Shown here: positions 1-11,953 of the stretch, piece by piece
How the letters are laid out: every line of letters starts with the position of its first letter
Numbering within the stretch: the first letter of the stretch is position 1
DNA from: a virus
Direction: 5' to 3' (one strand)
Virus record (IMG/VR): IMGVR_UViG_3300045988_070924
Location: 1 to 64,000 of that record
DNA length: 64,000 nt
The notes under the pieces: generated by a model
The model's input: only the letters and a program-made list of their open reading frames with translations
What the model was told of the DNA's origin: nothing
Database searches by the model: none
Program-made: the position numbers and the translations under genes

Positions 1-312
1 AGCTTCTTCTTCAGTTTCATAAAAAGTACCTATACAAGGAGACCCATAAGAATCTTCATATATATTTATCCAATATTCCTTTTTCTTAGGAGCAAAGAAC
101 AAATCATTTAAACTTACTTCTGCTTTCGGTATATACTTCTGACCATCTCTTGTATAAGTGACTACGTCTTCTTCATCACCTTTATAAACAAGTGCTACAA
201 TAGGCCATTTACCCTTTTTATCTGTGCAGAGAATCCTCGCAGCATAACCATCTCTAGTTACAATTTTTCGGTCTGGATTCTTCAAGTATTCATCTAAATT
301 AAACTGTTTCAT
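1..312 (-). CDS. hypothetical protein (C-terminus outside window); tandem paralog of 316..705
   Basis: Absent from the ORF track because no stop lies in the window. Read by eye from the ATG at 312: MKQFNLDEYLKNPDRKIVTRDGYAARILCTD...LFFAPKKKEYWINIY. Shares the LxEYLKNPxRKIxTxDG and LFFAPxKKExWINIY blocks with the next ORF. Confidence 0.6.
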   Translation of the reverse strand, partial: MKQFNLDEYLKNPDRKIVTRDGYAARILCTDKKGKWPIVALVYKGDEEDVVTYTRDGQKYIPKAEVSLNDLFFAPKKKEYWINIYEDSYGSPCIGTFYETEEEA

Positions 313-315
313 AGT

Positions 316-705
316 TTACTCCTCCCATTGGATTTTAATTGTTGAAATATAGCCCACAAGACCACTTCCTATTGCTGATTCCGCTTCTTCCTTTGTATTA
401 TAAACTTGTGACCCAGGAGTTATCATTGAAGATAGATTATATTTATAAATATTTATCCAACCTTCTTTCTTCTCTGGTGCGAAAAATAAATCATATGGAT
501 TATCTTTCGTTCCTCTTGTTTCTACTCCATCTTCCCAATAAGTCTTAATAATCTCATCTCCATTTGGTATTGTGATTAACGCTACAATTTGCTTTGTATT
601 TAATCCACATCTGTCAACACAAATAATTCGTGCTCTTCTGCCATCCTTTGTAGTAATTTTTCTTTGCGGATTTTTTAAGTATTCTCTTAAGTTAAACGGT
701 CTCAT
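316..705 (-). CDS. hypothetical protein, paralog of 1..312
   Basis: 129-aa ORF tightly packed in the minus-strand block. Shares motif blocks with the upstream partial ORF. Confidence 0.6.
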   Translation of the reverse strand: MRPFNLREYLKNPQRKITTKDGRRARIICVDRCGLNTKQIVALITIPNGDEIIKTYWEDGVETRGTKDNPYDLFFAPEKKEGWINIYKYNLSSMITPGSQVYNTKEEAESAIGSGLVGYISTIKIQWEE

Positions 706-714
706 ATCTTCTTA

Positions 715-1005
715 TTATTTATGTTTGCCATATCCTGCAATTCCTGTGTAACTGCAATTATCCAAGAACTCCTGTGCATCAGCTTTAAGAGTGTTAGTAT
801 TTATTTTGTCCTTATATCTTATGATAAGAGCACAAGCATTTGCTAACTCTTCTGTCTTTTCTCTTGCTGTTTTCTTGAGAGAATCCTCTTTGTGTTTGAC
901 AAGTTCTGCAATTGAAATTGTATCATCTTCTAACAGAGTCATGAGAATAACGTACCTGTCTAATGGGCTTTCTTTCAAGAATTTTATAATTTCCTTGTTA
1001 GTCAT
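715..1005 (-). CDS. hypothetical protein
   Basis: 96-aa ORF, co-oriented, with 3-9 nt spacing to its neighbours. Confidence 0.5.
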   Translation of the reverse strand: MTNKEIIKFLKESPLDRYVILMTLLEDDTISIAELVKHKEDSLKKTAREKTEELANACALIIRYKDKINTNTLKADAQEFLDNCSYTGIAGYGKHK

Positions 1006-1008
1006 AGT

Positions 1009-1221
1009 TTATTCCTCCATTGCTTTTCTGAATTTAATTTCAAACTCATTAAATGAAGATGTTATTATCTCTTCCTTGTGTTCCTTAAACCATTCAAGAG
1101 CTTTTTCTATCATCAACTTTTCTCCTGCTTCAAAACCACATTTCCAAAGATTAAAATCTCGCTCTTGTCTCTTGGCTATTTCGGCTTTACTTGGGCCGGG
1201 TCTCATTATAACTGAACTCAT
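1009..1221 (-). CDS. hypothetical protein
   Basis: 70-aa ORF, co-oriented and tightly packed. Confidence 0.45.
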   Translation of the reverse strand: MSSVIMRPGPSKAEIAKRQERDFNLWKCGFEAGEKLMIEKALEWFKEHKEEIITSSFNEFEIKFRKAMEE

Positions 1222-1273
1222 AATTATTCCTCCTATTTGTTATTTTATGGTTATTATTTAAGTAGTAACAACT

Positions 1274-1504
1274 TTACCACCTACTTGCAAAAGAAGTTTC
1301 TCCCACTCTATCCATTTCTTCTTGATACCTTCCACTATAAAACTCTTCTCTTGCCTTTTTAGCTGCCATTTCCTCTTCAGGAGTTCTTTGATGGTCTATA
1401 ACAAGTTCACCCTTAAAATTTCGAGTAATAAGGTTGGAATATACCTTCATGTTTTTTGGATACTTTGCTAATGCAGAAATTAGCTCTTCTACTGTTGTTA
1501 TCAT
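1274..1504 (-). CDS. hypothetical protein
   Basis: 76-aa ORF, co-oriented. Confidence 0.45.
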   Translation of the reverse strand: MITTVEELISALAKYPKNMKVYSNLITRNFKGELVIDHQRTPEEEMAAKKAREEFYSGRYQEEMDRVGETSFASRW

Positions 1505-1536
1505 ATTATTATATTATTAAAGTTTCTATTAAAAAA

Positions 1537-1661
1537 CTTCCCTGCTTGGACTCGAACCAAGGACCCTGAGATTACAAATCTGAAGTAACTGTAAATATCA
1601 CCACAATTAGGGAACATTCTTCACAGTTCTGTACATGCTCTACCAACTGAGCTACAGGGAA
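1537..1661 (-). tRNA. tRNA-Thr(UGU)-like gene with a 52-nt insertion (1584..1635) between the D arm and the anticodon arm; possibly a chimeric ncRNA or pseudogene
   Basis: Hand fold of the minus strand. Acceptor TTCCCTG/CAGGGAA, D arm GCTC-AGTTGGTA-GAGC, T arm CTTGG-TTCGAGT-CCAAG. Anticodon arm TCAGA-TTTGTAA-TCTCA with one C-C mismatch. Total length 125 nt. The insertion carries the E-family motif AGTTACTTCA. Confidence 0.55.
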
Positions 1662-1672
1662 GTTTAGATTGA

Positions 1673-1755
1673 AAGGCACTATGTAACAATCTTTAGAGTT
1701 CTATTGAAAACTAAGAAACAGTTGAAGTAACTCTAAATATCAACAATAGTGCCTT
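1673..1755 (-). ncRNA. E-family structured element, copy E2 (transcribed strand not established)
   Basis: Outer stem AAGGCACTAT/ATAGTGCCTT and inner stem TTTAGAGTT/AACTCTAAA. Conserved plus-strand motif TGAAGTAACT at 1723-1732. Conserved internal-loop bases. Confidence 0.5.
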
Positions 1756-1759
1756 ATAT

Positions 1760-1857
1760 AAGATATCATAAGAACATTTAGACAGAGGTGTTGTTATATG
1801 AGAGTCAAAAATTGCAAATTTGATGAAGTAACTCTGTCTGTCACTATACAATATCTT
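1760..1857 (-). ncRNA. E-family structured element, copy E3
   Basis: Outer stem AAGATAT/ATATCTT and inner stem AGACAGAG/CTCTGTCT. TGAAGTAACT at 1824-1833. Confidence 0.5.
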
Positions 1858-1864
1858 TATTTAG

Positions 1865-1950
1865 TACCAGAAATGAGACTTGAACTCACACGGGCATTGC
1901 TGCCCAAGGGATTTTAAGTCCCTCGTGTCTACCAATTCCACCATTCTGGC
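1865..1950 (-). tRNA. tRNA-Leu(UAA), class II
   Basis: Acceptor GCCAGAA/TTCTGGT, anticodon arm AGGGA-CTTAAAA-TCCCT, long variable arm, T loop TTCAAGT. Confidence 0.85.
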
Positions 1951-1959
1951 ATTTTAATG

Positions 1960-2033
1960 TAGGGAGTAAGGGACTTGAACCCTTAGTCTTGAGTGTATAA
2001 GACTCCTGCTTTCACCAATTAAGCTAACTCCCT
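1960..2033 (-). tRNA. tRNA-Ile(UAU)
   Basis: 74-nt cloverleaf. Acceptor AGGGAGT/ACTCCCT, anticodon loop CTTATAC, T arm AAGGG-TTCAAGT-CCCTT. Confidence 0.8.
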
Positions 2034-2092
2034 ATAAAACAGGTGTACTTCACAGCAGACCTGTCCATGTTCATCCTCTAAAAGAAGAATTG

Positions 2093-2164
2093 TACCCCCA
2101 GAAGGAATTGAACCCTCATTTAAAGAGTAGAAATCTTTTGTTCTATCCATTGAACTATAGGGGC
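2093..2164 (-). tRNA. tRNA-Arg(UCU)
   Basis: 72-nt cloverleaf. Acceptor GCCCCTA/TGGGGGT, anticodon arm AAAGA-TTTCTAC-TCTTT, T loop TTCAATT. Confidence 0.85.
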
Positions 2165-2192
2165 ATTGAGGCAGACTTGCTGCCTCTTTTCA

Positions 2193-2465
2193 CTATATCT
2201 CTATAGTGGTATCAAAATCATCCCAGTCTTCTTTTTCACTAACCTCGAACATCTCATCATCAATCTTGCTCCAGAAATCTCTACCTTCAGGGGTCTCCGC
2301 CCAAAAGAAAGCCTTATTAACAGTGCTAGGTGACTCTTTACCAAGAAGATAGTATAGTATCTGCTCTGGGGAGTTCATTGCTACTATACAGTTATTTATA
2401 AACTGAGGTAACCAAGGCTGCTTCAATATCCACTCAGATGCTTTCGGATTGACCTCTATTTCCAT
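2193..2465 (-). CDS. hypothetical acidic protein
   Basis: 90-aa ORF immediately downstream of the AAA+ gene in the same operon. Confidence 0.5.
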   Translation of the reverse strand: MEIEVNPKASEWILKQPWLPQFINNCIVAMNSPEQILYYLLGKESPSTVNKAFFWAETPEGRDFWSKIDDEMFEVSEKEDWDDFDTTIEI

Positions 2466-2476
2466 AATATGCCCTC

Positions 2477-3865
2477 CTATTTGCCTCTAAGAATCTGCTT
2501 GATTCCTTCAGCCATTATAGTCTGCATGCTCTGATAGAACTCCTTCTCAGGAGTCATGCTCATATCCTTCTTTCTTGAGAGGTTTACCTGTCTGTCATAA
2601 GCCTTGACAGCATTCTTGAGAATCTCATCAGTTACAAGATTGTTCTCTGCAAAGATAAGTTTACTCTTGATAGATTCAACTATCTCTGCCATGAATGCAG
2701 GTGCTATCTCCATCTTCTCTATAAGGTCGAGGGATTCTTTAAGTTCACCAACCTTATATCCATCTTTGAAGGACTCTTTGATGAATCTCAATGCTGTCTC
2801 CTTATCAAGGCAGTCCATAGTAATTACTGAACCAATTCTCTTTCCTCTGAGGAATGTAGGTTCAATAAGTTCTATGTGGTTGGTAGTGAACAAAGTAATG
2901 ACATTCATATCTTTGGTATCACCACCATCAAGAGTGTTCAGAATATCCTGAAGAGATGCATCTCTTTCTCCTCTTGTAACCTGGTCAATGTCCTCTACAA
3001 AGACTATCACTCCATTGCATGACCTGTCTATGATTTTCACCATCCTCAAGGTCTCTGCAAGAAGAGAAGGGTCCTTAAGATATACAAAAGTCCAATTGTT
3101 CTTGGTAGCCTCTCTTGCAAGTTTGAATGCAAGAAGGGTCTTTCCAGTACCATACTTCCCTTCAAACAGACATCCATACTTAAGAGGAATGCCTGCCTTG
3201 AGACATTTCTCAGGATACAGGATTCTTGACCTCAAAGGCTGAAGGTCAAACTCTGTCTGCTTTGACAAGACCATCAATTGACTATCTATATGGCTGAGGT
3301 TGAGTCTCTTAGGCTCTTTGCCTCTCTCTGTTATCTCAAGAGCCTGATTCTTGTAGATAGAGTTTGTAGCAAGGAGTTCCCTTGTCCTGTCCACGATATC
3401 ATCAATCATGGACTGATACTTAGACTTGCACACTCCTGTTATAACCAGTTCTGAAGTACTATTGGAGTAGTTCAACTCTATATAGGAATCACCACCAAGT
3501 TCAGGCAATGAAATCCTACCAAAAGGTACTTTTGTTCGTGAGCCATCAGCAAGGATAACATCAAAAGTATTGATATTACCAGAGCCTGAAGGACCTGCAT
3601 CTTTCTCAGCCCTTACTGAGCCAAATATCTCTTCAACAGCCTTGTTAAACTGGAATGCACCGTCAGTCTTCCAACATTTGATGTTGTAATTGAGAGATAC
3701 GTCCTGTTCAGACATTTCTATCTCATTCTTGATGAAGGCAAGAACTTCTGCATACTTCATGTCTGACTTACAGGCTGTAATGATACGCTCTTTTTGCTGC
3801 TGTTCAAAGAAATTTACTTTCTTCTTGAGCACATCCTTTGTGCTCTGGATAATTGTTTGTTCCAT
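2477..3865 (-). CDS. classic-clade AAA+ ATPase with an uncharacterised N-terminal domain
   Basis: Walker A GKYGTGKT, Walker B VIVFVEDID, and TNHIELIEPTFLRGKRIG (second region of homology). The ATG at 3865 is preferred over the track start at 3931, which would overlap the upstream ORF. An A-rich spacer precedes the ATG. Confidence 0.8.
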   Translation of the reverse strand: MEQTIIQSTKDVLKKKVNFFEQQQKERIITACKSDMKYAEVLAFIKNEIEMSEQDVSLNYNIKCWKTDGAFQFNKAVEEIFGSVRAEKDAGPSGSGNINTFDVILADGSRTKVPFGRISLPELGGDSYIELNYSNSTSELVITGVCKSKYQSMIDDIVDRTRELLATNSIYKNQALEITERGKEPKRLNLSHIDSQLMVLSKQTEFDLQPLRSRILYPEKCLKAGIPLKYGCLFEGKYGTGKTLLAFKLAREATKNNWTFVYLKDPSLLAETLRMVKIIDRSCNGVIVFVEDIDQVTRGERDASLQDILNTLDGGDTKDMNVITLFTTNHIELIEPTFLRGKRIGSVITMDCLDKETALRFIKESFKDGYKVGELKESLDLIEKMEIAPAFMAEIVESIKSKLIFAENNLVTDEILKNAVKAYDRQVNLSRKKDMSMTPEKEFYQSMQTIMAEGIKQILRGK

Positions 3866-3876
3866 TGTTTTTTTTT

Positions 3877-4122
3877 TTAATAAATACTTGTCAATATGTT
3901 CTTGGCATTTTCTATAGTTGTTGTTAAGCATCCAAACTCTATAATTTCACCACTTTTCCTTATGACCAGATTCTTCTGAGGTATGTTATATCTGTCCATG
4001 TCACCATAGACAGCCTCCTTAAGAAGGTCATAAGGAACAGCAGTGTTCTTACAGAATAGGATTCTTTTCTCAGGGACATAAATTACATCATATCCCTGAA
4101 TGTTTCCTACTGTTTGTCTCAT
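3877..4122 (-). CDS. hypothetical protein between the Ro60-like and AAA+ genes
   Basis: 81-aa ORF. Its start overlaps the stop of the upstream gene by 4 nt. Confidence 0.5.
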   Translation of the reverse strand: MRQTVGNIQGYDVIYVPEKRILFCKNTAVPYDLLKEAVYGDMDRYNIPQKNLVIRKSGEIIEFGCLTTTIENAKNILTSIY

Positions 4123-5528
4123 TCATCAAAAGTATTTTCAATACCTTCATATGCTGCTATGAATGTTAGGAAATTCTCTGAAAAGCCACTTATTTCAGCA
4201 TCCCAAGCACCCTTATAGTTCACACCATGCCTTTCAGATGATACATCACAGATGTAGTTGTGTTTTCCAAAAGGCTTTGGAACTCTCTTATCAGGATAGT
4301 CACAGTCCTGTGAGTCTGAGAATACAATTATTCTATCAAACTCTCCAGTAAACTGTTCTCTTGACCACTCAAGACACTGTCTTGTGAAGATTCCTCCACC
4401 TCCAACCCTACTATTTGCTTTATCTATCTGCTTGAGAAGGTTGAATCCCTTTGAAGGATATTTGATTACTTCTGATTTATGCTCTTTGGTATAGTCATTA
4501 CCAGCAGTTACTACCAACTCAAAGTCTTCACACTGGTTTGCAGCAAGCATAGCCATAGCCTTTGCAGCATCAAGCCTTGTGAGTTTAGACTTACTTGAGA
4601 TTGAAGCATACTTCATAGAACCAGAAGCATCAAGTATGAACAGAGTCCTACCAGGGACTTTAGGAAGATTAGACCATGAAGTTATCATAGCATCTTCTAT
4701 ATCCCTCTCAAACTCAGGATTCATTCTGGCTGCCTGCAAGAAGTTCATAGGCAATAGCATTGAAGCCTTAAGGTTTTCAAAGCCATATTTTATTACTTTC
4801 TTGTCTACATCTGCATCCCTCATGTTTCTCAGGTTTCTAAGGAATGCAAGACCTCCAATCTTATTCTCACTGATGAGTTTGGTCCATGTTTCCTTCTTGT
4901 CTTTTCCTGCTGAAAGCATGGTCTCCCAAGTTTCAGGTACAGGAAGAGTCCTTGAAGCAATCATCTTGAAGAGTTCTGCTTCCTTTTCATCCCAAGGTCT
5001 TGGGTGAACAAGAAACATTACATCTCTGAGTTTTATTGCAGCATCTCTGTCATACTTTGCAAACTTATAGGCATTGAAATTATGAAATGCTGCTGCAAGT
5101 CCTTTCTTTGCCTGATTAGCCAGTGACTTCTTTCCTCCTTTCCAATATATAGAAAGGAAGTCAGTCAGCATATCTGCCCTTGTTATAATCTTTGGTAGCA
5201 AGTCTCTTACAAATAGCCTATGTTCAGGGTACTTGCACATTCCAGATGCCAGAAACAAAGGTGTGTGCCTGAGTTTCTGTAGAGTTCTTGCTGCCAAAGC
5301 AACAGTATATACATCTTCTGCACTACATAGAGGTATGAGCCTTTCAATCTCTTCAGCAATCTTCTTGCCATCACAATAGGCAACATCTTCCCAAAGAAGA
5401 TTAGCCAAGGTGAGTCTTTTAAGAAGAGCAATGTTTGACTGCTTAGCAGCAAGAGCACCACTACCTCCAGCAAGTCTTTCATCTGTAAATTTAGATGTTG
5501 ACTTGATGTTTGGATTCAATTTAGACAT
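4119..5528 (-). CDS. rsr: Ro60/Rsr-like protein (TROVE domain plus vWA domain)
   Basis: The segments FAKYDRDAAIKLRDVMFLVHPRP, ETWTKLISENKIGGLAFLRNLRNM and LLPMNFLQAARM correspond, from memory, to the human Ro60 segments [44 protein letters not shown] and IHPFHILIALETY. The C-terminal vWA domain has the MIDAS motif LFILDASGSM. Confidence 0.85.
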   Translation of the reverse strand: MSKLNPNIKSTSKFTDERLAGGSGALAAKQSNIALLKRLTLANLLWEDVAYCDGKKIAEEIERLIPLCSAEDVYTVALAARTLQKLRHTPLFLASGMCKYPEHRLFVRDLLPKIITRADMLTDFLSIYWKGGKKSLANQAKKGLAAAFHNFNAYKFAKYDRDAAIKLRDVMFLVHPRPWDEKEAELFKMIASRTLPVPETWETMLSAGKDKKETWTKLISENKIGGLAFLRNLRNMRDADVDKKVIKYGFENLKASMLLPMNFLQAARMNPEFERDIEDAMITSWSNLPKVPGRTLFILDASGSMKYASISSKSKLTRLDAAKAMAMLAANQCEDFELVVTAGNDYTKEHKSEVIKYPSKGFNLLKQIDKANSRVGGGGIFTRQCLEWSREQFTGEFDRIIVFSDSQDCDYPDKRVPKPFGKHNYICDVSSERHGVNYKGAWDAEISGFSENFLTFIAAYEGIENTFDE

Positions 5529-5554
5529 AGTAAACTAATGTTTTAATTGTTTGA

Positions 5555-5586
5555 CAAAGGTAAATAAAATAATTGGTATTACCAAA
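5555..5586 (-). promoter_or_regulatory. Bacteroidota-type promoter for the Ro60-like operon
   Basis: On the minus strand: TTTG (5586-5583), a 20-nt spacer, then TACCTTTG (5562-5555), about 27 nt upstream of the ATG at 5528. Confidence 0.6.
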
Positions 5587-5591
5587 TAATT

Positions 5592-5819
5592 TTACATACC
5601 AAACCTTAAATTCCCATTGTTCCCACCAATAAGTTTTTTCTTACCACAATTCAGACATTCACATACTCTGTATCCATTTATTTCAGAGAGTCCAATTGTG
5701 AATAAGGCATTGAAGAATCTTGGGATTCCTGCTCTTTCTCCCAAGTCATTGGTGGTGTAAATCTCATGGGCTGTGGTTCTGCCACATATGGGACAGTACG
5801 TTTGTATAACTCTGGACAT
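5592..5819 (-). CDS. zinc-ribbon protein
   Basis: 75 aa with CPICG...CLNCG (two CxxC pairs). Confidence 0.55.
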   Translation of the reverse strand: MSRVIQTYCPICGRTTAHEIYTTNDLGERAGIPRFFNALFTIGLSEINGYRVCECLNCGKKKLIGGNNGNLRFGM

Positions 5820-6088
5820 TTCTTGATAGTTCTAACAGTGTCTACCCTGACTTTAAGTTCTACTTTATATTTGCCTCTGTCATAATCTATAACAGCCTTG
5901 TTCATGCTTGTTTCTATACTTGCGTAAGAAATAAGTATACATAGACTAAGTGTGGCTACAGTGAGGACCCAACTTGTGATTTTCAGTAGTCTGTCTGTTT
6001 TTTTCTCAAAAGGTGGGAGGCATATCTTACAAACTATACCAAATCCCATCCATAGCAACACACTGAATATAAATTGTCCATAGTCCAT
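5678..6088 (-). CDS. membrane protein; its 3' part overlaps the zinc-ribbon ORF in another frame
   Basis: Two N-terminal hydrophobic helices. The last ~140 nt overlap 5592..5819, so the true C-terminus is uncertain. Confidence 0.4.
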   Translation of the reverse strand: MDYGQFIFSVLLWMGFGIVCKICLPPFEKKTDRLLKITSWVLTVATLSLCILISYASIETSMNKAVIDYDRGKYKVELKVRVDTVRTIKKCPELYKRTVPYVAEPQPMRFTPPMTWEKEQESQDSSMPYSQLDSLK

Positions 6089-6723
6089 TATAATCTTACT
6101 TTATAGTAGTTAAGTCTTGCCTGTAGTGAATCAATATTATGATTAGTAAGTATATGGGTGTGTATAGTTTTTAATTTACTTTCATAATATTTATCAGTAG
6201 CATACCTATTTCCATTTATATCTGTAAAGGAATCAAATAAATCTTCTATTGTTTTGCCATTAAGATAATTGGAGTTCAATAAATATAGATATGGTTCAAC
6301 AGAATCATTTGGATTTTTGTATTTGAATTTAATATCTTCAAGACTATAATTGTCATAAGCACCTACATTCCAGATGCTGTTTGTCCTATAAGCCAATCCT
6401 GTTGTACCAAATTTACTTTCCAATTCTCCTTGAGCTAATACAAAAGAAATAGGTATTTTATACTTTTCACATTTTTCTACAAGAATCAAAGCTCTAAGAT
6501 TTGAATTAGGAGCTATTGAATCTATGTAATTTTGTGTGGCATCTACAAGGTCTGATTTCACACCTTGATATTTTACATGCAATTCCTTCATATATTCAGT
6601 TGCAGTATCATATTCTCCATTCTCACTTTTAGGAAAAGCCCAAGTAAAAGCAAAAATAGCTATGATAGCTACTATTGAAATACAGATAGAATTTAATGTA
6701 ATTCTAAATCTTTCTGTAGTCAT
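6088..6723 (-). CDS. membrane-anchored glucosaminidase-like peptidoglycan hydrolase (tentative)
   Basis: N-terminal TM helix. AQGELESKFGTTGLAYRTNSIWNVGAYD resembles the glucosaminidase/FlgJ-type catalytic block (ESxxG...N.FG). Confidence 0.45.
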   Translation of the reverse strand: MTTERFRITLNSICISIVAIIAIFAFTWAFPKSENGEYDTATEYMKELHVKYQGVKSDLVDATQNYIDSIAPNSNLRALILVEKCEKYKIPISFVLAQGELESKFGTTGLAYRTNSIWNVGAYDNYSLEDIKFKYKNPNDSVEPYLYLLNSNYLNGKTIEDLFDSFTDINGNRYATDKYYESKLKTIHTHILTNHNIDSLQARLNYYKVRL

Positions 6724-7022
6724 GGTTTTTGATTTTTGTTAAATATGCTAAGAATAGCATTCCAGAATTTTACATACCAAGGAACCTTCTTAGCTTCTTC
6801 TCTAGGAGTTTTATAGGCATTTGCAAGTGCACAATCTATTACATAACTATCAATAATATCCCTATTTCTATAATATCTTGAGGAAACTGCCTTTCTAGAT
6901 ATAAGAATATTAAATTTGTTAATTATTTCATCTTGTGCCTGCATGAAAGCCAAAGTATGATTTCTCTGATGATTCAAGATACATTTAGCTATTATCTTGT
7001 CCATCTCTTTTGTCCACTTCAT
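6720..7022 (-). CDS. hypothetical protein
   Basis: 100-aa ORF with a 4-nt overlap to the downstream gene. Confidence 0.5.
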   Translation of the reverse strand: MKWTKEMDKIIAKCILNHQRNHTLAFMQAQDEIINKFNILISRKAVSSRYYRNRDIIDSYVIDCALANAYKTPREEAKKVPWYVKFWNAILSIFNKNQKP

Positions 7023-7263
7023 TATAATCCTTTATTAGTTGGTTAATAATAAGTTTTATGAGGATAAATACTAATAGTATAGGAACTGTCACTATAATTA
7101 ACTTAATAAAAACTGCCAACATGATGATGAAAATTGATATAATAACAGCTCCTACTCCTATTATTATTCCCATTTCTTTTGCACTAAGTATTTTATTCCA
7201 ATACAGAGTAGTACTATAGGCAAGCCCAATATTGCAATCATCACTAAGAGAGCTATAATACAA
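6985..7263 (-). CDS. small membrane protein (the internal Met at 7173 may be the true start)
   Basis: Long hydrophobic stretch GIIIGVGAVIISIFIIMLAVFIKLIIVTVPILLVFILI. Confidence 0.4.
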   Translation of the reverse strand: MYYSSLSDDCNIGLAYSTTLYWNKILSAKEMGIIIGVGAVIISIFIIMLAVFIKLIIVTVPILLVFILIKLIINQLIKDYNEVDKRDGQDNS

Positions 7264-7321
7264 AATATCACATTTCCTGTTGCTGTTACTGGTTCCATAA
7301 TATTATTCTTTTACTATCTTT

Positions 7322-7717
7322 TTATTGTTTATTCTTTCTTTCTTTTTGTGCTTTGAGCCTTGCTCTTAAACCTTCATTTTCTGCTATTGGCTTATAAGCA
7401 AGATTCATAAAATAATGAAGTAGTGAGAGTACACATACTATGCAGAACCAAGTGAACAGAAAATCATATATTATGTTTCCTGATACTGGCATAAGATGGT
7501 ATTTCAGACCTCTTGTGGTGAACATAATCACCAGCACTACATAGTGACCCAGACAATAAGGGCAGTGAATAAGTTCTTCTATCTTTCCGCCTATGTGGTC
7601 TTCTATAAGATTTCTGAGCCATTCAAATATACTTGTAACACTTATTGTATAGGATATACTGGCTGCACACAATGCTACAGCCAGTATATAAGTCCAATCA
7701 CCACCCATAGTAATCAT
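7322..7717 (-). CDS. multi-pass membrane protein with a CPYC motif
   Basis: 131 aa, 3-4 predicted TM helices, HCPYCLGHY between helices. Confidence 0.5.
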   Translation of the reverse strand: MITMGGDWTYILAVALCAASISYTISVTSIFEWLRNLIEDHIGGKIEELIHCPYCLGHYVVLVIMFTTRGLKYHLMPVSGNIIYDFLFTWFCIVCVLSLLHYFMNLAYKPIAENEGLRARLKAQKERKNKQ

Positions 7718-8033
7718 CAGGATTGTGGTCCTCTACAGAACCTGTATACTCACCCTCATATACTGCCCCTGCTACATCCTCTAGTGCCTTCATCTTGTCA
7801 TAGTCACTATCTATAAGGTCACCATCTTTTACACCCTCATAGTCTTCAGGAACTATTGCATGATAGAGGTTTTCACTAGTGGAACCACATCCACACTTTG
7901 ATACATAGGTGAAGTTTATGACTTTCTTTCTGGTCTCAGGTATTTCCTGAGATTTTATGTTCTCAAACATCTCCTTGAGATTCTCCTCTTCCTGAGGTTC
8001 TTCTCTCTTTTTGAATAATTGTCCTATTCCCAT
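7698..8033 (-). CDS. hypothetical acidic protein
   Basis: 111-aa ORF. It overlaps both neighbours by a few codons, which suggests translational coupling. Confidence 0.5.
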   Translation of the reverse strand: MGIGQLFKKREEPQEEENLKEMFENIKSQEIPETRKKVINFTYVSKCGCGSTSENLYHAIVPEDYEGVKDGDLIDSDYDKMKALEDVAGAVYEGEYTGSVEDHNPDDYYGW

Positions 8034-9097
8034 GTCTTTATTATCTTAGTTAAGATAGATTCAGATAGTTCTCCATTTGCTTCTCTGATGATAGAGTAGG
8101 AAGCCTTGTCTACAATACCCTTTATAAGAGCACCAGACAATTTTCCATTGAATTGGCTGTATGCTTCCTTAGATATGCTTTTAGCCAGTTTATTAACATT
8201 TCCAGATACAGGTTTGCCCTTAAGATATATCTTGAAGATGTCTTCTGCATCCTCAACTGTAGGTCTTGAAATTTCAAGCCTAAGGTCAATTCTTCCTGGT
8301 CTGATGATTGCTGGGTCAAGAGCATCCTTGAAGTTGGTAGCAAGGATTATAAAAGTAGAATTACTTTCAAACCCATCAAGTTCACTCAAGAATGTAGGAA
8401 CAATGGTGAGGTCTACATCTGATGACCTTCTACTGCCCCTTGCATTAAGTACAGCTTCTGCTTCATCAATAAATATGACTGACCTCTGTTTCCTTACTCT
8501 GTAGTTCTGTCTTGCCCTTGAGAACATACTCTTAATATTATTCTCAGTTACACCAACATATGGACTGAGCATTTCTCCACCCTTCAAATAAATAAAAGAG
8601 TCTGGATTCAACTCAGTACCATTAAGGAATGCTGATGCAATAGCCTTGGCTACCATAGTTTTACCACATCCTGGAGGACCATAAAGAAGAACTCCTCTTG
8701 ATGGTTCAAGACCCATTCTCTTGAGATAGTCAGGATGTTTTATAGGCAATTCTATAGCATCTCTTATCTGTGAAATCTGACTCTTGAGACCTCCAATCTG
8801 CTCCCATTTGATATGTTCAAACTCTACAGGCTTGACAGGTTTCTCAAGTTCTTCTGGAAGAATACATATAATCATATTCTTGTTTACCATTACCTTGTCT
8901 CCTATCTTTGGGTTTTCATCGAGTTTAGGTGATTTAGGTATGATTACCTCATTACCATTTACTATAACTCTATACAACCCATTGTGCTGAGAGATGACAA
9001 CACTTTCCATGTAAGGTCCTTCTATGACCATCTCAAGTAGTTTTTCATACTCTGAGATTTTATCTCTCAAAGCATCAATTTCTTCCTGATAACTCAT
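8024..9097 (-). CDS. PAN/ARC/Rpt-like AAA+ unfoldase (coiled coil + OB domain + AAA)
   Basis: N-terminal heptad-like MSYQEEIDALRDKISEYEKLLEMV, then an OB-like YRVIVNGNEVIIPKSPKLDENPKIGDKVMVNKNMIICILP. Walker A GPPGCGKT, Walker B VIFIDEAEAV, and ATNFKDALDPAIIRPGRIDLRLEISRP. Confidence 0.8.
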   Translation of the reverse strand: MSYQEEIDALRDKISEYEKLLEMVIEGPYMESVVISQHNGLYRVIVNGNEVIIPKSPKLDENPKIGDKVMVNKNMIICILPEELEKPVKPVEFEHIKWEQIGGLKSQISQIRDAIELPIKHPDYLKRMGLEPSRGVLLYGPPGCGKTMVAKAIASAFLNGTELNPDSFIYLKGGEMLSPYVGVTENNIKSMFSRARQNYRVRKQRSVIFIDEAEAVLNARGSRRSSDVDLTIVPTFLSELDGFESNSTFIILATNFKDALDPAIIRPGRIDLRLEISRPTVEDAEDIFKIYLKGKPVSGNVNKLAKSISKEAYSQFNGKLSGALIKGIVDKASYSIIREANGELSESILTKIIKTWE

Positions 9098-9206
9098 TTT
9101 AGCACCTCCTTGTTAAATGTTGATACTACTGTGAAGGTCTTTTCTCCTTGAGAAATTCCTTCTTTTTTTTTGTTACATAACATTGTTTTTTTTGTGGGTT
9201 AAATAG

Positions 9207-9280
9207 TGACTCCACTGGGACTTGAACCCAGATAACCTACCTTAAAAGGGTAGTGCATTAACCAATTATGCTATGGAGTC
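9207..9280 (-). tRNA. tRNA-Lys(UUU)
   Basis: Acceptor GACTCCA/TGGAGTC, anticodon arm CTACC-CTTTTAA-GGTAG, T arm CTGGG-TTCAAGT-CCCAG. Confidence 0.85.
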
Positions 9281-9287
9281 CTCCAGA

Positions 9288-9572
9288 CTACTTGTCCTCG
9301 CCAGTATCATTCTTTGAACCACCAGTAGCCATATCAAGCATCAGTGTAGCAGCCAGAATATTCCTAAGATTAGGAGTCTTCTTTATGGCTGATAGAAGTG
9401 CTGTAATAAGATTCTGGTTCTGTCCAACCACTGCACACGTTGATGATTTCTCATCTGTTGCAAGGACTATACATCCTCTCTTTTCCTTGTTTTCAGAAGT
9501 CCATTTGACTACATTCTCACAGACATCTATTCTCTTCTGTTCACCTTTGGTTGGTGTTCTATCATCTTTCAT
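9288..9572 (-). CDS. hypothetical protein; likely paralog of 9575..9886
   Basis: 94 aa. Both ORFs share the pattern W-x4-9-(K/N)R(G)C(A/I)IV(I)L(G/A)(T)D followed by a Cys and an LI(T/A)(A/S)L block. Confidence 0.5.
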   Translation of the reverse strand: MKDDRTPTKGEQKRIDVCENVVKWTSENKEKRGCIVLATDEKSSTCAVVGQNQNLITALLSAIKKTPNLRNILAATLMLDMATGGSKNDTGEDK

Positions 9573-9574
9573 GA

Positions 9575-9886
9575 CTATTTCTCCTCTTCTTCTGATTTGT
9601 TGAACATAGACAGCAGTTCTCCAAGAGACCCCATCAGACTATAAGCTGCAAACTCCTTGAGGTCCTTATTATGGTCCAATGAACTTCCGAGAGATGCTAT
9701 TAGGAGTTCTCCTGGACCTATCATGCCACATAAAGACCTTCCTGCATCTTCCTTGTTTTCTCTGTCACCCAGAATGACTATTGCACATCTGTTGTCTGAG
9801 TCTTGGTCACACCAAGAGGTGATGAGCTCATTGATTTTCCCCTTCTGTTCATCAACAGAGAGAGATTTGAAATCTTTTTCTTTCAT
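9575..9886 (-). CDS. hypothetical protein; likely paralog of 9288..9572
   Basis: 103 aa. Poly-A leader directly upstream of the ATG. Confidence 0.5.
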   Translation of the reverse strand: MKEKDFKSLSVDEQKGKINELITSWCDQDSDNRCAIVILGDRENKEDAGRSLCGMIGPGELLIASLGSSLDHNKDLKEFAAYSLMGSLGELLSMFNKSEEEEK

Positions 9887-9940
9887 TTGTTTTTTTTTTT
9901 AAGATTAGTACTAATATGTTAAGAAATGTATTTTATTTAA

Positions 9941-10035
9941 AAAGGGCTATGCAACAGTTTGTGGAGTATAATTAAGTACCCAAAAACTTATTTCATTATC
10001 AGTGAAGTAACTCCACTATTCAGCAATAGCCCTTT
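9941..10035 (-). ncRNA. E-family structured element, copy E4
   Basis: Outer stem AAAGGGCTAT/ATAGCCCTTT and inner stem GTGGAGT/ACTCCAC. TGAAGTAACT at 10003-10012. Lies immediately 3' of ORF 10050..10820. Confidence 0.5.
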
Positions 10036-10049
10036 GTCTTTAGCTCAGT

Positions 10050-10820
10050 TTATCCCTCAGCCTTCAGCATTTCATATGCCTTTTTGACATCTTCCTGCTT
10101 CTGGAAATATACTATTCCCAGATACATCACTCTTTCATGTGTACCTATACAATAGTTATTATCCAGCTTAATGCTGTTAGGAAGGTTATAGGAATAGTGA
10201 GTCTTTGCCAAGAAATACTTGGTCTTGGTTACGTCTGGCTCCCATGTACCATTGAAATACTTGGCTATAAGTGCCAGTTTCATATGAAGAGTGAGTTCAC
10301 TACCTATCTCTACCCCTATTTCCTTGGAGAGTTTCATGGTGCTTGAAGCATCTTTACTACCCAGTTTCATGTTCAGGTGAAGGCTTGTTATTCCAAGAGA
10401 TTCAAGAACTTCCTTGAGGCTCTGTGGTTCACTCAATTCCTTTTCAGTATATGCCTGAAGAGCCAGCTTATGCAGAGTCTGGTCTTTGCCATTATACCAA
10501 TTTCTTGCCTCTTCAAGAGAGACTTTGACGTTTCTTTTTTCCCTGTTATTACTTGTTTGATGGTTGTTAAATCTTGTTGATGGTGTTTCTACCTGAGTAT
10601 CAATAGGCAGTAGCTCCTTGAGTATAAATTCATTGTAGGTATTGTAGATTCCTACAGGATAATCAAAGACCCTAACTACCTTCATAGGAGCATCTCCATA
10701 GTTTGGATTTCTCAGTATATCTCCTTCCCTCACATAGGGCATCTTTGGGATTTTGAATGTGCATTTCTTTGTTCTTGAAGAACTGCTTTCAGGAAACACT
10801 ACTGTACATAATCTCATCAT
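10050..10820 (-). CDS. hypothetical protein
   Basis: 256-aa ORF with no motif I can recognise. Confidence 0.55.
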   Translation of the reverse strand: MMRLCTVVFPESSSSRTKKCTFKIPKMPYVREGDILRNPNYGDAPMKVVRVFDYPVGIYNTYNEFILKELLPIDTQVETPSTRFNNHQTSNNREKRNVKVSLEEARNWYNGKDQTLHKLALQAYTEKELSEPQSLKEVLESLGITSLHLNMKLGSKDASSTMKLSKEIGVEIGSELTLHMKLALIAKYFNGTWEPDVTKTKYFLAKTHYSYNLPNSIKLDNNYCIGTHERVMYLGIVYFQKQEDVKKAYEMLKAEG

Positions 10821-10866
10821 ATTATATTTGTTTATAAATCTTCTCCGTAAGGGTTTCTCTAATAAA

Positions 10867-10949
10867 AGAGAGGCTATGTAATAAGCTGTAAAGTGTTTTT
10901 CATAATACCCTAAATTGAAGTAACTTTACAAATCAACAATAACCTCTCT
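10867..10949 (-). ncRNA. E-family structured element, copy E5
   Basis: Outer stem AGAGAGG/CCTCTCT and inner stem TGTAAAGT/ACTTTACA. TGAAGTAACT at 10916-10925. Lies immediately 3' of the small ORF 10957..11097. Confidence 0.5.
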
Positions 10950-10956
10950 GATTATT

Positions 10957-11097
10957 TTATTCGTGGTATCCACAGTTTGGACAGTAACATCCATCATACA
11001 TATTGTCACAATTAGGACATCTGTACTCTGGTTCCCAATCTAACCCTTCTGATGTTATATCTTCAGAAGGGTTATCTAGAAGTTCTATATCATTCAT
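10957..11097 (-). CDS. 46-aa zinc-ribbon mini-protein
   Basis: Below the track cut-off. Read by eye: MNDIELLDNPSEDITSEGLDWEPEYRCPNCDNMYDGCYCPNCGYHE. Confidence 0.45.
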   Translation of the reverse strand: MNDIELLDNPSEDITSEGLDWEPEYRCPNCDNMYDGCYCPNCGYHE

Positions 11098-11100
11098 GGT

Positions 11101-11229
11101 CTACTCTTTTAGTAAGACATACAAAACTGTAGAATTTTCCTTTCTGAGCATGTATTTCTCCTCTGTAGGGAATTCAACAGAGTACTTTACTTCCTCTGTT
11201 GGAATAGATTTCTTTTCAAACTGTTTCAT
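11101..11229 (-). CDS. possible 42-aa ORF
   Basis: Read by eye: MKQFEKKSIPTEEVKYSVEFPTEEKYMLRKENSTVLYVLLKE. Sits tightly between its neighbours. Confidence 0.3.
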   Translation of the reverse strand: MKQFEKKSIPTEEVKYSVEFPTEEKYMLRKENSTVLYVLLKE

Positions 11230-11581
11230 TTTTATCTTCTTTGGGGTCATTACCAGTTAATATGGCAATATCTTCTGATGTTATGAATGTTTTACATATG
11301 TAGATTAATGCAAATCCTATCCCAAATACTATCAGTATTCCAGTGGATGTAAAAGAATCTGCAAGACATACTGCAAAAATCCAGTATATCAAAGTTGAAT
11401 ACATCAGTATTCCTTTGATTATGTATATGATTGTTTTCATTTTAGTGAAAATATTGTAAGTTGTGAGTAATTTACTTATTAAAAATAGGACAATCTTTGC
11501 AAGAAATGTGCAGTGATTTGCTCTAAGTTCATCACAGTAGAAAATAAAACAAAAGGACAAAATGGTCATAGAATAGACCAT
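11216..11581 (-). CDS. membrane protein (the internal Met at 11440 is a plausible start)
   Basis: Hydrophobic helices IYWIFAVCLADSF and GILIVFGIGFALIYI. Confidence 0.4.
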   Translation of the reverse strand: MVYSMTILSFCFIFYCDELRANHCTFLAKIVLFLISKLLTTYNIFTKMKTIIYIIKGILMYSTLIYWIFAVCLADSFTSTGILIVFGIGFALIYICKTFITSEDIAILTGNDPKEDKNETV

Positions 11582-11606
11582 TCTGTCCTAATGTCAAGAG
11601 CCATGA

Positions 11607-11897
11607 TTACATGGCTGTACCATCTGCTCTGTAGATGTCATCATCACCATCCCTCTCTAAGGTGATGATGTCTACGGACTTAATGTCCACGGAGTCACCT
11701 TCCTCAAGCTGACTGTCTCTTGAAAGAGGCATAAATTTCTTGCCTCCAGCCTTCATCAAGAAGCACATTGAAAGTCCATACTGACCTTCAACTACCTTAG
11801 CAGATTCAACCTGAGCTACCTCAGCCTTGCTGAGTTTCTCTCTGCCAGCTTCACTCCATGAGCCAGCATAAGTACGGAGTTTGTCCAAAAATCCCAT
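11607..11897 (-). CDS. hypothetical protein; distant paralog of 12328..12633
   Basis: 96 aa, locally GC-richer. Shares the EEGD(S/T)(V/I)D block and the C-terminal pattern with 12328..12633. Preceded by the 34-nt motif. Confidence 0.55.
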   Translation of the reverse strand: MGFLDKLRTYAGSWSEAGREKLSKAEVAQVESAKVVEGQYGLSMCFLMKAGGKKFMPLSRDSQLEEGDSVDIKSVDIITLERDGDDDIYRADGTAM

Positions 11898-11953
11898 AGT
11901 GCTTGAATGTTTGAATGTTTGTAGATAAACTTAGTTGGTCCACATATCTTGTG

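Follow-up and report, generated by a model that had tools for sequence, protein, structure and literature searches.

A gene for a Ro60/Rsr ortholog and a set of small genes and RNA elements were located on the minus strand of the analyzed viral DNA, a stretch of 64,000 nucleotides that is referred to here as the window (Table 1). All neighbors listed in an earlier note on this sequence, which comprised an AAA+ ATPase, three tRNAs, an interrupted tRNA-like gene, and structured RNA elements, were present on the strand of the Ro60 gene. The same note had described the virus as a crAss-like phage, and this label is correct because the major capsid protein shares 80% identity with its crAss001 counterpart. 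A megablast search of the region against phage genomes retrieved tRNA-sized matches only and thus no near-identical sequenced phage.

Table 1 Genes, domains, promoter-like site, and RNA elements of the Ro60 region, listed in the 5′ to 3′ direction of the minus strand. R1 denotes the covariance model used for the RNA elements; bit scores and E-values refer to this model unless stated otherwise.
Feature	Position in window	Strand	Evidence and remarks
Y-RNA-like hairpin 4	10871..10945	-	intergenic, 5.3 kb upstream of Ro60; R1 58.8 bits, E = 3e-10
Y-RNA-like hairpin 3	9944..10032	-	intergenic, 4.4 kb upstream of Ro60, same early-gene block; R1 71.9 bits, E = 3e-13
Bacteroides-type promoter-like site TTTG-N20-TAccTTTG	5555..5586	-	consensus match; 27 nt upstream of Ro60 start codon
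Ro60/Rsr ortholog gene	4119..5528	-	ORF, ATG start, 469 aa; Pfam TROVE, PDB profile matches, AF2, Foldseek
TROVE ring (helical)	4677-5435 (~aa 32-284)	-	part of Ro60 ORF
vWA domain	4149-4658 (~aa 291-460)	-	part of Ro60 ORF
MIDAS motif D300-A-S302-G-S304	4617..4631	-	in vWA domain; distal MIDAS Asp is D405
81-aa ORF, conserved	3877..4122	-	ORF list; start overlaps Ro60 stop codon
AAA+ ATPase, classical p97/Cdc48-D2-like clade	2477..3865	-	Pfam AAA 52 bits; PDB p97/VCP D2
90-aa ORF, conserved	2193..2465	-	ORF list; same-position 90-aa gene in L002, L004, and L005
tRNA-Arg(tct)	2092-2164	-	ARAGORN; Rfam tRNA
tRNA-Ile(tat)	1959-2033	-	ARAGORN; Rfam tRNA
tRNA-Leu(taa)	1864-1950	-	ARAGORN; Rfam tRNA
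Y-RNA-like hairpin 1 (YrlB-like)	1764..1853	-	R1 57.3 bits, E = 7e-10; P1/P2 pairing
Y-RNA-like hairpin 2 (YrlB-like)	1676..1752	-	R1 76.1 bits, E = 3e-14; seed of alignment A2
Putative permuted YrlA-like tRNA mimic (the interrupted tRNA-like gene of the earlier note)	1537..1661	-	sequence; fold; 18 homologues; RNAalifold

Sequence profiles, predicted fold, and gene context agreed with the earlier assignment of the ORF to the Ro60/Rsr family with TROVE and vWA domains and confirmed that it encodes a Ro60/Rsr ortholog in a phage of the crAss001 group. The segments on which that assignment had been based were found in the translation at aa 155–177 (FAKYDRDAAIKLRDVMFLVHPRP), 224–235 (GGLAFLRNLRNM), 257–268 (LLPMNFLQAARM), and 300–304 (DASGS), and the human Ro60 segments with which the note compared them (including IHPFHILIA) sit opposite the window segments in the profile-to-PDB alignment, where the first stretch is weak when taken alone (domain E = 0.58). 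The proposed HMMER check against Pfam was positive for TROVE (PF05731; 48.5 bits, cut-off 23), which matched aa 194–312 of the window protein only and was detected in 83 of 83 diverse family members. It was negative for the vWA models, as vWA_Ro60 (20.6 bits, cut-off 27.7) and VWA_2 (18.8 bits) both remained under their cut-offs in the window protein; among the relatives, Pfam vWA models reached E ≤ 0.001 in 29 of 83. The intact MIDAS motif claimed for this domain was borne out by alignment A1 of the 83 diverse family members, in which D300, S302, S304, and D405 are invariant, and the MIDAS residues of the window protein align with the DVSxSM motif that phiRo60 shares with its human counterpart. 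A search of the family profile against the PDB recovered phiRo60 over nearly the whole length (4.8e-58), human Ro60 (1.6e-15), Ro60 of 1yvp (1.6e-13), and Rsr (2.5e-11).

The AF2 model of the window protein (pLDDT 90.6, pTM 0.87) predicts a helical-repeat ring closed by a vWA domain, with an alpha/beta fold at aa 291–460. Its 13 best Foldseek matches in the PDB were all Ro60 structures, matched over the full length with TM values of 0.58–0.74, while the next match had a TM of 0.15; phiRo60 was the best fold match by E-value.

The view of the earlier note that the Ro60 gene heads a host-promoter-driven operon is plausible. The promoter-like site in front of the gene is the single minus-strand match to TTTG-N20-TAnnTTTG in the 64-kb window, and both strands together contain six matches, compared with a mean of 2.9 in mononucleotide shuffles. 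A sigma-70 and terminator scan of positions 1300–5700 yielded counts at chance level and no terminator call on the minus strand, and we therefore infer the 3′ operon boundary (the U6 run after 1537) from the fold only. The 81-aa ORF had no match in Pfam or PHROG, and an 81-aa gene occupies the equivalent position in L002, L004, and L005. The AAA+ ATPase likely starts at Met23 of a 484-aa ORF that reaches position 3931, which gives 462 aa as in the relatives, and is syntenic in the same three loci (462–464 aa). It belongs to phrog_10440, a PHROG without assigned function, and its aa 234–391 match p97/VCP D2 at about 1e-15 in a PDB profile search. The three operon tRNAs (1864..2164) scored 55–69 bits with the Rfam tRNA model and are part of a set of 19 tRNA genes detected by ARAGORN in the whole window.

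The adjoining ATPase bears on a very improbable reading, according to which the vWA domain is the business end of the protein and forms a MoxR-like vWA/AAA+ protein-remodeling machine with the ATPase, RNA binding being vestigial. The pairing of vWA and AAA+ proteins is well known, as in NorQ/NorD, and such pairs occurred among the weak Foldseek matches, the MIDAS is invariant, and the module consisting of the TROVE gene, the 81-aa ORF, the AAA+ gene, and the 90-aa ORF is kept in the clade of the window. However, the ATPase is p97-D2-like and not of the MoxR type, crAss001 and almost every other TROVE locus lack such an ATPase next to the TROVE gene, and the linkage of TROVE to Y RNAs described below is far wider than the ATPase linkage.

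One two-helix module (P1 and P2) with strong covariation is common to the structured RNA elements and to the tRNA-like gene with its insert. In hairpin 1, P1 is followed by the box UAUAGUGAC, P2, the loop UUACUUCA, P2, AAAUGUUCU, and P1, and hairpin 2 is arranged as P1, AUUGUUGAUA, P2, the UUACUUCA loop, P2, GAUUGUUAC, and P1. Across 16 seed sequences, 87.6% of the cells pair, compared with 57.6% in shuffles and 35–47% with slid partners, and the covariation score was 0.83 versus 0.25. The same held for 47 distinct sequences (90.1% versus 57.7%), and P1 was recovered by RNAalifold unaided. In the four hairpins, the covarying P1 and P2 form a closing stem with an internal loop, as is characteristic of YrlA and YrlB.

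The layout of the tRNA-like element is permuted, as its stem is placed internally and capped by a loop. The element runs from the acceptor 5′ strand through the D arm, the Ro60-stem module, the V hairpin, and the T arm to the acceptor 3′ strand, followed by the U6 run; within the module, the order is P2 3′ strand, AUGUUCC, a closed or degenerate P1, UUGUGGUGAUA, P2 5′ strand, and UUACUUCA. This is the arm order of a natural tRNA, in contrast to the T-acceptor-D order in YrlA. The fold z-score of the element is −3.1, the 7-bp acceptor stem is perfect in 18 of 18 distinct homologous sequences, and the acceptor, D, P2, and T helices were recovered with compensatory changes by RNAalifold. Against Rfam, these homologues were scored as tRNAs that carry a large insertion. 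Rfam scans at E ≤ 1 of window positions 1–20000 and of the crAss loci L001 and L009 returned tRNA matches only, and a self-cleaving ribozyme or other known RNA family was rejected on these grounds.

Judged by their sequences, the window elements look like Y RNAs, four of them in hairpin form and the fifth a circularly permuted, YrlA-like mimic of a tRNA, because of the shared covarying module, the same-strand adjacency to TROVE, and the YrlA matches enclosed by the module in other phages. In CcrColossus and Xanthomonas phage MET23-P3, matches to Rfam YrlA (RF02553) fall inside or beside R1 matches; these RF02553 matches are below threshold (37–52 bits, gathering score 69), and the R1 matches in CcrColossus are singly weak (E = 0.25–3.7). 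Copies with long inserts fold in the order stem, V, T arm, closed acceptor, D arm, and stem. The boxes GGUGAAG and GGCGUAG of related phages stand at the position of the YrlA box GNCGAAN0-1G and differ from it by one base, and UUAC fits the YUAY that is conserved in YrlA. In the window, the T, D, and acceptor helices of the element at 1537–1661 provide the tRNA-like domain expected in at least one RNA per genome. The strict YrlA box, searched as GNCGAAG or GNCGAANG, had no match in the whole window, its one-mismatch form was absent from the five window elements, and neither YrlA (RF02553) nor Y_RNA of Rfam matched the window or the crAss loci at E ≤ 1. The case for homology to YrlA therefore rests on the architecture, on two further conserved boxes, and on a series of intermediates. 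A possible resemblance of the boxes UAGUG and UUGUUC to human Y1 RNA received no support from the Rfam Y_RNA model. YrlA and YrlB genes lie on the strand of the Ro60 gene within ~4 kb of it, as do three of the window elements, which are located 2.3–2.6 kb downstream of Ro60, whereas hairpins 3 and 4 are on the same strand but lie upstream beyond this distance.

The RNA module adjoins TROVE genes in crAss-like phages and in unrelated, distant phages, always on the same strand. All R1 matches were on the TROVE strand. In crAss001-like genomes, three to four copies start 11–140 nt past the TROVE stop codon and the array closes with a terminator, and 40 loci with TROVE at 39–72% identity contained 54 R1 matches, every one of which was on the strand of TROVE and almost all of which were at most ~600 nt from the gene. 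A motif-first scan of IMG/VR found 47 loci with both R1 and TROVE, 11 with R1 only, 3 with TROVE only, and 58 with neither, counts that are not independent events because most of the linked loci are closely related crAss001-like genomes. A profile search for a hidden TROVE in the available DNA flanking the 11 loci with R1 only found none; four of these loci are on contigs with TROVE farther off, and the other seven have no TROVE in the DNA covered. Among TROVE lineages with 56–58% identity on very large contigs, L017, L019, and L185 had no nearby R1 match at full sensitivity, and L187 had weak R1 matches. R1 gave nothing convincing on Rhizobium phage Y65. The linkage extends to high-GC phages outside the crAss-like group and unrelated to it, where the side of the gene occupied by the module varies.

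We regard it as improbable that the elements act in cis as signals in the early region, for example as virion RNA polymerase promoters (possibly recognized as DNA hairpins) or as stems for processing or stability of tRNA precursors, and are close to TROVE only by shared synteny. The fixed-spacing bipartite box GTG-N10-TTACTTCA resembles a phage-polymerase promoter, and the virion polymerase of phi14:2 transcribes single-stranded DNA only in vitro (phi14:2 paper). Moreover, some copies flank or contain real tRNAs, with whole tRNAs nested inside the stem in relatives, and some sit kilobases from TROVE. Yet both flanking helices covary, including the strand 5′ of the box, and the box therefore lies inside a folded molecule. 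The same three-dimensional module also occurs circularly permuted, an arrangement incompatible with a linear promoter, and the phi14:2 paper reports no early promoter motif; a promoter was thus rejected as the main explanation of the bipartite box. The persistence of the TROVE linkage in the high-GC phages with the module on differing sides of the gene, and the identity of the module as the closing stem of Rfam-recognized YrlA, also speak against cis-acting signals.

We consider it probable, at roughly 75%, that the window encodes a phage Ro60 ortholog which acts early, together with phage-encoded Y RNAs, in a particle that targets host RNA decay or quality control. The analysis shows the family and predicted fold of the protein, the structures of the RNAs with their covariation, and a tight linkage of RNA and protein genes in distant phages. 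The conserved same-strand adjacency of the gene to Y-RNA-like genes suggests that the protein binds Y RNAs, and we infer a physical Ro60-RNA interaction, early timing in the window phage, and an effect on host nucleases. Ro60 would most likely be made early in infection, by analogy with its crAss001 homologue, and would probably assemble with the phage Y RNAs encoded on the same strand, i.e. the four YrlB-like hairpins and the tRNA-shaped RNA. In the latter, a putative Ro60-binding stem would take the place of the anticodon arm, which corresponds to a circular permutation of YrlA. As for the bacterial Rsr-Y RNA-PNPase particles and phiRo60, the particle may engage the 3′-to-5′ RNA decay machinery of the host, and it could redirect or dampen this machinery in favor of phage transcripts and the large phage tRNA set.

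Alternatively, though this is unlikely, the main job of Ro60 would not involve Y RNAs and would consist of quality control or repair support for phage and host tRNAs or rRNAs damaged by RNA-targeting host defenses, as the earlier note suggested, the linked RNAs serving only as gates that regulate entry to the ring. The abundance of tRNA genes, three of them in the Ro60 operon, fits this function, and the tRNA-shaped Y RNA could compete with tRNAs. However, the operon contains no RNA ligase, cyclase, or kinase of the RtcB, RtcA, or Pnkp type, the neighbors being the AAA+ ATPase and two small ORFs, and the close linkage to Y RNAs, which is ancient, favors the RNP as the functional unit. A function of the neighboring RNAs as the protein's own Y RNAs is better supported than the speculative role against anticodon nucleases put forward in the earlier note. 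Another conceivable but doubtful scenario is that crAss001-type Y RNAs were re-engineered into true tRNA-shaped molecules, with free ends in a natural 7-bp acceptor stem, D and T arms, and the Ro60-binding stem at the site of the anticodon arm, which would tether the early Ro60 ring to the tRNA, translation, or tRNA-targeting defense machinery of the host and not to PNPase alone. RNase P could cut such RNAs, CCA could be added to them, and tRNA-binding factors could handle them; as part of the tether, they could serve, for example, as a sensor of anticodon nucleases or as a decoy. A conserved AAA+ ATPase that partners with the vWA domain might remodel the particle.

CrAss-like phages rank with the most abundant viruses in the human gut, and to our knowledge their early genes are almost entirely without known function. 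The annotation of the Ro60 gene is not new, and the RNA side is what is added here: one crAss early gene is placed in a well-studied RNP family, and its probable RNA partners are indicated. As crAss001 is culturable, tagged gp96, the RNAs of the gp96-gp95 gap at about 96,000–96,870 of NC_049977, and the exoribonucleases of Bacteroides are open to direct study. For the Ro60 field, the elements would extend the Y RNA family to a very AT-rich and divergent branch missed by existing models, and they suggest that the putative Ro60-binding stem is a portable module, one that can be circularly permuted around the scaffold of a tRNA.

The supposition that Ro60 had not been recognized in Bacteroidota phages turned out to be mistaken, because gp96 of crAss001 (YP_009910836.1) and its PhiCrAssBcn homologues already carried TROVE-domain or RNA-binding annotations, and the crAss001 TROVE gene has been published as an early gene. 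Together with the homologues in cr112_1 and cr106_1, these proteins are 67–68% identical to the window protein over the full length, with 67% for gp96, and represent the same phage group. As in the window, their genes are followed on the same strand by RNA elements of the same family. The crAss001 array begins ~100 nt past the gene with no AAA+ ATPase adjoining, whereas in the window the 81-aa ORF, the AAA+ ATPase, the 90-aa ORF, and the three tRNAs separate Ro60 from the downstream RNAs. Literature searches on crAss Y RNAs and crAss small RNAs found no crAss paper describing these RNAs, and a search for YrlA in phages beyond Chen 2014 returned nothing relevant.

Ro60 proteins accompanied by Y RNAs were already known from phages in 2014 (Chen et al. 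2014, PMC4201824). The YrlA and YrlB RNAs of Rsr (PMC4201824; RF02553) have in common with the window elements that they are encoded on the same strand near the Ro60 gene, as tandem YrlA-like and YrlB-like genes. They also share with the crAss-type RNAs a closing stem with a conserved 5′ box, the UUAC (= YUAY) that opens the V hairpin, and, in one or more RNAs of each genome, the T, acceptor, and D arms. In contrast, the crAss box is degenerate (UAGUG, UUGUGGUGAUA, or AUUGUUGAUA versus GNCGAAN0-1G in YrlA), the tRNA-like RNA of the window is circularly permuted, has both its ends in a 7-bp acceptor stem, and contains a loop-closed Ro60 stem, and the window contains five Y-RNA-like copies, which RF02553 misses.

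The solved structure closest by sequence is phiRo60 of the Thermus phage phiLo with Yrl1/Yrl2 (PDB 9KOP, 9L5Y; NAR 2025, PMC12135203), which, as proposed for the window, is a phage Ro60 with phage Y-like RNAs encoded beside its gene. It binds the Yrl RNAs of the phage and has an attenuating effect on host PNPase in vitro (PMC12135203). However, phiRo60 is only about 22% identical to the window protein, PNPase binding has been demonstrated for phiLo only, and the phiLo Yrl RNAs are defined by a CGAA motif and lie upstream of the gene; R1 did not match these experimentally bound RNAs. The metazoan Ro60-Y RNA and the D. radiodurans Rsr-Yrn1-PNPase (RYPER) complexes are more distant, as the window protein is 16–18% identical to these Ro60 proteins and ~70 residues shorter, and the conserved metazoan helix (GGUCCGA) is absent from the window RNAs. 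The same ring-plus-vWA fold is nevertheless predicted for the window protein, with Foldseek TM values of 0.58–0.74 for the model against 2i91, 9nep, 1yvr, and 2nvo, and by analogy these systems and the window appear to follow a common logic, in which an RNA built of a stem, an internal loop, and a second stem is provided for the ring.

The phage in the window belongs to the crAss001 group, in line with the earlier note, which had called it crAss-like: it has terminase and portal genes, and its major capsid protein shares 80% identity with the one from Bacteroides phage crAss001 (Steigviridae). No near-identical genome was found in the phage collection searched. The Ro60/Rsr-type ORF (ATG start, 469 aa) contains all segments quoted from it in the note, with DASGS at residues 300–304. 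Pfam TROVE was recovered with 48.5 bits (curated cut-off, 23), the aligned part covering residues 194–312 only, and the vWA domain claimed alongside it scored below the cut-offs of both Pfam vWA models. In a single-sequence search of solved structures, the best match was a "TROVE domain-containing protein" (9KOP/9L5Y; E = 8e-15, residues 24–416), which is phiRo60 of Thermus phage phiLo, and Deinococcus Rsr was marginal. The Ro60/TROVE family is large, with 3,238 representatives after clustering at 50% identity. A profile of 83 diverse members (alignment A1), all 83 of which match TROVE, retrieved phiRo60 from the PDB over almost its full length (E = 4.8e-58) and, with partial coverage, human Ro60 (9NEN; E = 1.6e-15), the Ro60 autoantigen (1YVP; E = 1.6e-13) and Deinococcus Rsr (2NVO; E = 2.5e-11). 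In residue-level alignments, the three human Ro60 segments given in the note sit opposite matching phage segments. D300, S302, S304 and D405 are invariant in A1, and the MIDAS is therefore intact, as had been proposed.

The AlphaFold2 model built from A1 (mean pLDDT 90.6, pTM 0.87) is confident; its N-terminal ~250 residues are helical, and an alpha/beta domain comes after them. All 13 Foldseek matches in the PDB at E ≤ 1e-9 were Ro60 structures (phiRo60, Ro autoantigen entries 2I91, 1YVP and 1YVR, human Ro60, and Deinococcus Rsr), with whole-chain TM-scores of 0.58–0.74, and the next match had E = 1e-3 and TM 0.15. The original observation is thus confirmed and its interpretation supported: the product is a Ro60/Rsr ortholog. 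Neither of the two outcomes that the note had given as refuting was seen. The gene itself is not new and belongs to a known, already annotated family. Homologues were found by tblastn in 92 phage genome records, and IMG/VR holds at least 550 relatives. The genes of crAss001 (gp96), PhiCrAssBcn, cr112_1 and cr106_1 are 67–68% identical to the window protein over the full length and carry the annotation "TROVE domain-containing protein" or "RNA-binding protein".

Between 1.5 and 11 kb of the window, the minus strand holds five exact copies of the 10-mer AGTTACTTCA, all of them intergenic. In crAss001, four copies of this box lie in a ~900-nt unannotated gap right downstream of gp96, and the box recurs downstream of the TROVE operon in all relatives examined. 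In the corresponding RNA module, helix P1 is followed by a 5' box (UAGUG.., UGUGGUGAUA or AUUGUUGAUA) and helix P2; the apical region then opens with UUACUUCA, and after it come the second strands of P2 and P1, with a 3' box (..UGUUCU/C) between them. As read from the sequences, it comes in three arrangements. Type A has a plain loop as its apical region. Type B, a circular permutation of type A, sits inside a tRNA-like gene, following the D arm, and its P1 is loop-closed or itself reduced to a loop. In type C, found in relatives, the apical domain is a complete tRNA in natural order, which ARAGORN calls as Pro, His or Gln and which P1, the boxes and P2 enclose; the 5' strand of this tRNA's acceptor stem and the UUACUUCA box overlap. 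The RNA array of crAss001-like genomes ends in an intrinsic terminator and is thus probably co-transcribed with TROVE.

Applied to 16 copies of type A aligned with MAFFT (A2), RNAalifold recovered P1 unaided, with compensatory changes in nine of nine pairs. For explicit P1 and P2, 87.6% of the cells were paired (shuffled, 57.6%; partners slid, 35–47%), and the covariation score of 0.83 (shuffled, 0.25) was reached by none of 500 shuffles. The corresponding values for 47 distinct sequences (A3) were 90.1% (57.7%; 32–50%) and 0.82 (0.23), which are biased toward the P1+P2 structure because the model was used to fit this alignment. A perfect 7-bp acceptor stem was present in 18 of 18 distinct type B genes, formed by nine different sequence pairs. 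RNAalifold on nine of these genes recovered this stem (7/7 pairs compensated) as well as the D stem, P2, the CC:GG box pairs and the T stem. Rfam reads crAss001-type copies of type B as tRNA with a large insertion, and as no other family.

The covariance model of the module (R1) gave 48 matches in the window, which holds four, and the first 24 loci, all on the TROVE strand. A box-only scan of IMG/VR, blind to TROVE, returned 119 loci, many of which are expected by chance because only 15 bases were specified. Sorted by R1 and tblastn, 47 had both module and TROVE gene, 11 only the module, three only the TROVE gene and 58 neither, the linked loci being mostly close relatives. Module and TROVE gene always shared a strand and typically lay 11–140 nt apart. 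This set includes TROVE proteins with just 25–43% identity to the query, some of them from contigs of 150–255 kb, and next to such genes the module lies upstream, not downstream (L027, L037, L044, L053, L060, L077, L078). A TROVE-first set of 40 loci (39–72% identity) confirmed the linkage, with 54 of 54 R1 matches (GC content 0.26–0.59) on the TROVE strand and nearly all within ~600 nt of the gene. We consider it very improbable that the RNA elements are without relation to Ro60. Seven R1-positive loci had no TROVE gene within the DNA examined. Three TROVE loci (L017, L019 and L185; 56–58% identity, contigs of 158–255 kb) lacked an R1 module within 5–6 kb with filters off, and may have a different Y RNA or none.

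The operon neighbors named in the note (AAA+ ATPase, three tRNAs, interrupted tRNA-like gene and structured RNAs) were all found on the minus strand, and we infer that the features from 5586 to 1537 form one transcript.

Features of the window and of related loci (L numbers; L001, crAss001)
Feature	Position	Strand	Basis or remark
Bacteroides-type promoter-like site	5586-5555	minus	only one on minus strand
Ro60 gene	5528-4119	minus	ORF
81-aa ORF	4122-3877	minus	ORF
AAA+ ATPase, p97-D2-like	3865-2477	minus	Pfam + PDB comparison
90-aa ORF	2465-2193	minus	ORF
Hairpin GAGGCAGACTTGCTGCCTC	2168-2186		perfect 7-bp GC-rich palindrome
tRNA-Arg, tRNA-Ile, tRNA-Leu	2164-1864	minus	tRNA calls
Two Y-RNA-like hairpins	1853-1764 and 1752-1676	minus	R1
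Permuted YrlA-like RNA, then U6	1661-1537	minus	sequence + fold
Second AAA ATPase	8024-9097	minus	357 aa; Pfam AAA, 111 bits
tRNA-Lys(ttt)	9206-9280		
Further R1 matches	9944-10032, 10871-10945	minus	R1
Promoter matches (TTTG-N20-TAnnTTTG)	12799-12830, 15513-15544, 17777-17808	plus	Bacteroides type
Array of 15 tRNA genes	15818-18723	plus	
tRNA-Met call	18640-18721		weak in Rfam, tRNA-Sec-like
Type C modules	L002 14100-14231; L008 9772-9900; L004 about 13530-13660		
tmRNA calls	L005 14402-14803; L006 12503-12855; L013 4198-4550; L014 4519-4866; L015 5580-5958; L024 4559-4959		ARAGORN
Pseudo-tRNA, 4-base anticodon (taat)	L001 1112-1202 (crAss001 record 101478-101568)		annotated; Rfam tRNA, 58 bits

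The order Ro60, 81-aa ORF, AAA+ ATPase, 90-aa ORF is kept in the window's clade (L002, L004, L005, L006–L008) and not in crAss001. The 81-aa ORF, AAA+ ATPase and 90-aa ORF (2477–4122) occur as a set only in this clade and are absent beside gp96. The ~230-aa N-terminal part of the ATPase has no family assignment (phrog_10440, unknown function). A vWA/AAA+ partnership of Ro60 with this neighbor is possible. A vWA/AAA+ protein machine as the explanation of the locus is highly improbable.

Several further features were observed. The hairpin between the 90-aa ORF and tRNA-Arg has a T-run on the plus strand only, where no gene ends. The second, stronger classical AAA ATPase also belongs to this early block, where its gene lies a short way upstream of tRNA-Lys. 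The plus-strand promoter matches, two of which end in TTACTTACCTTTG, are found where the divergent block begins and around the large array of tRNA genes (15.8–18.7 kb); the window has 19 tRNA genes in total. In several crAss001-group relatives, ARAGORN called phage tmRNA genes, with tag peptides ending in AA, at most a few kb from TROVE; it called none in the window. The pseudo-tRNA of crAss001 lies in the same early region.

Taking the Ro60 identity and the Y RNA partnership together, we conclude with a probability of about 0.75 that the phage makes an early Ro60–Y RNA particle, in which an early-made Ro60 ring would combine with phage Y RNAs. Quality control of tRNAs or rRNAs by a Y-RNA-free Ro60 seems unlikely beside the linked modules. 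The action of the Ro60–Y RNA particle can be proposed by analogy with its relatives. Bacterial Rsr–Y RNA tethers PNPase for structured-RNA degradation, with the Y RNA gating the ring (PMC4201824, PMC12135203), and phiRo60, solved in 2025, in vitro binds two phage Y-like RNAs and, as phiRo60–Yrl, attenuates host PNPase (PMC12135203). That the particle would modulate a host 3'-to-5' exoribonuclease is a tentative assignment, at somewhat under even odds.

A 2014 report listed 22 phages that have Ro60 orthologs with adjoining Y RNAs. We found no account of Y RNA elements in the literature on crAss-like phages. In YrlA RNAs, a GNCGAAN0-1G box lies near the 5' end and is similar to GGUCCGA, which Xenopus Ro60 contacts; the V loop opens with a conserved YUAY, and the third feature is a set of T, acceptor-like and D arms. 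The criterion applied was an RNA on the Ro60 strand within 4 kb (Chen et al. 2014, PMC4201824). The strict YrlA box is absent from the window, and the Rfam YrlA model (RF02553) does not match the crAss copies in the window and crAss loci, so their assignment is based on architecture, on two boxes in common, on intermediates and on linkage. The consensus from divergent phages reads P1, GUGGUGAAG, P2, UUACUUC, loop, P2, CGnUUGUUCC, P1. Its boxes GGUGAAG and GGCGUAG are one-base variants of the YrlA box, and UUAC fits YUAY. Run at full sensitivity, R1 found matches in the gap on the upstream side of TROVE, with E = 0.0015 and 0.033 in Xanthomonas phage MET23-P3 and with weak values (E = 0.25–3.7) in CcrColossus. 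Long-insert copies fold into a stem, V hairpin, T arm (GGUUCGAAUCC), closed acceptor stem, D arm and stem, and sub-threshold RF02553 matches lie inside R1 matches in L225 (2019–2132 in 2005–2145) and L227 (2720–2828 in 2705–2842). We read the module as the stem by which Y RNAs of the YrlA/YrlB type bind Ro60, putatively so for the crAss copies, which appear to be a degenerate, AT-rich branch of Y RNAs. On the RNA side, three traits would mark a new variant among Y RNAs: the divergence of the Ro60-binding stem, a YrlA that is tRNA-shaped and circularly permuted, and, in relatives, the nesting of tRNAs.
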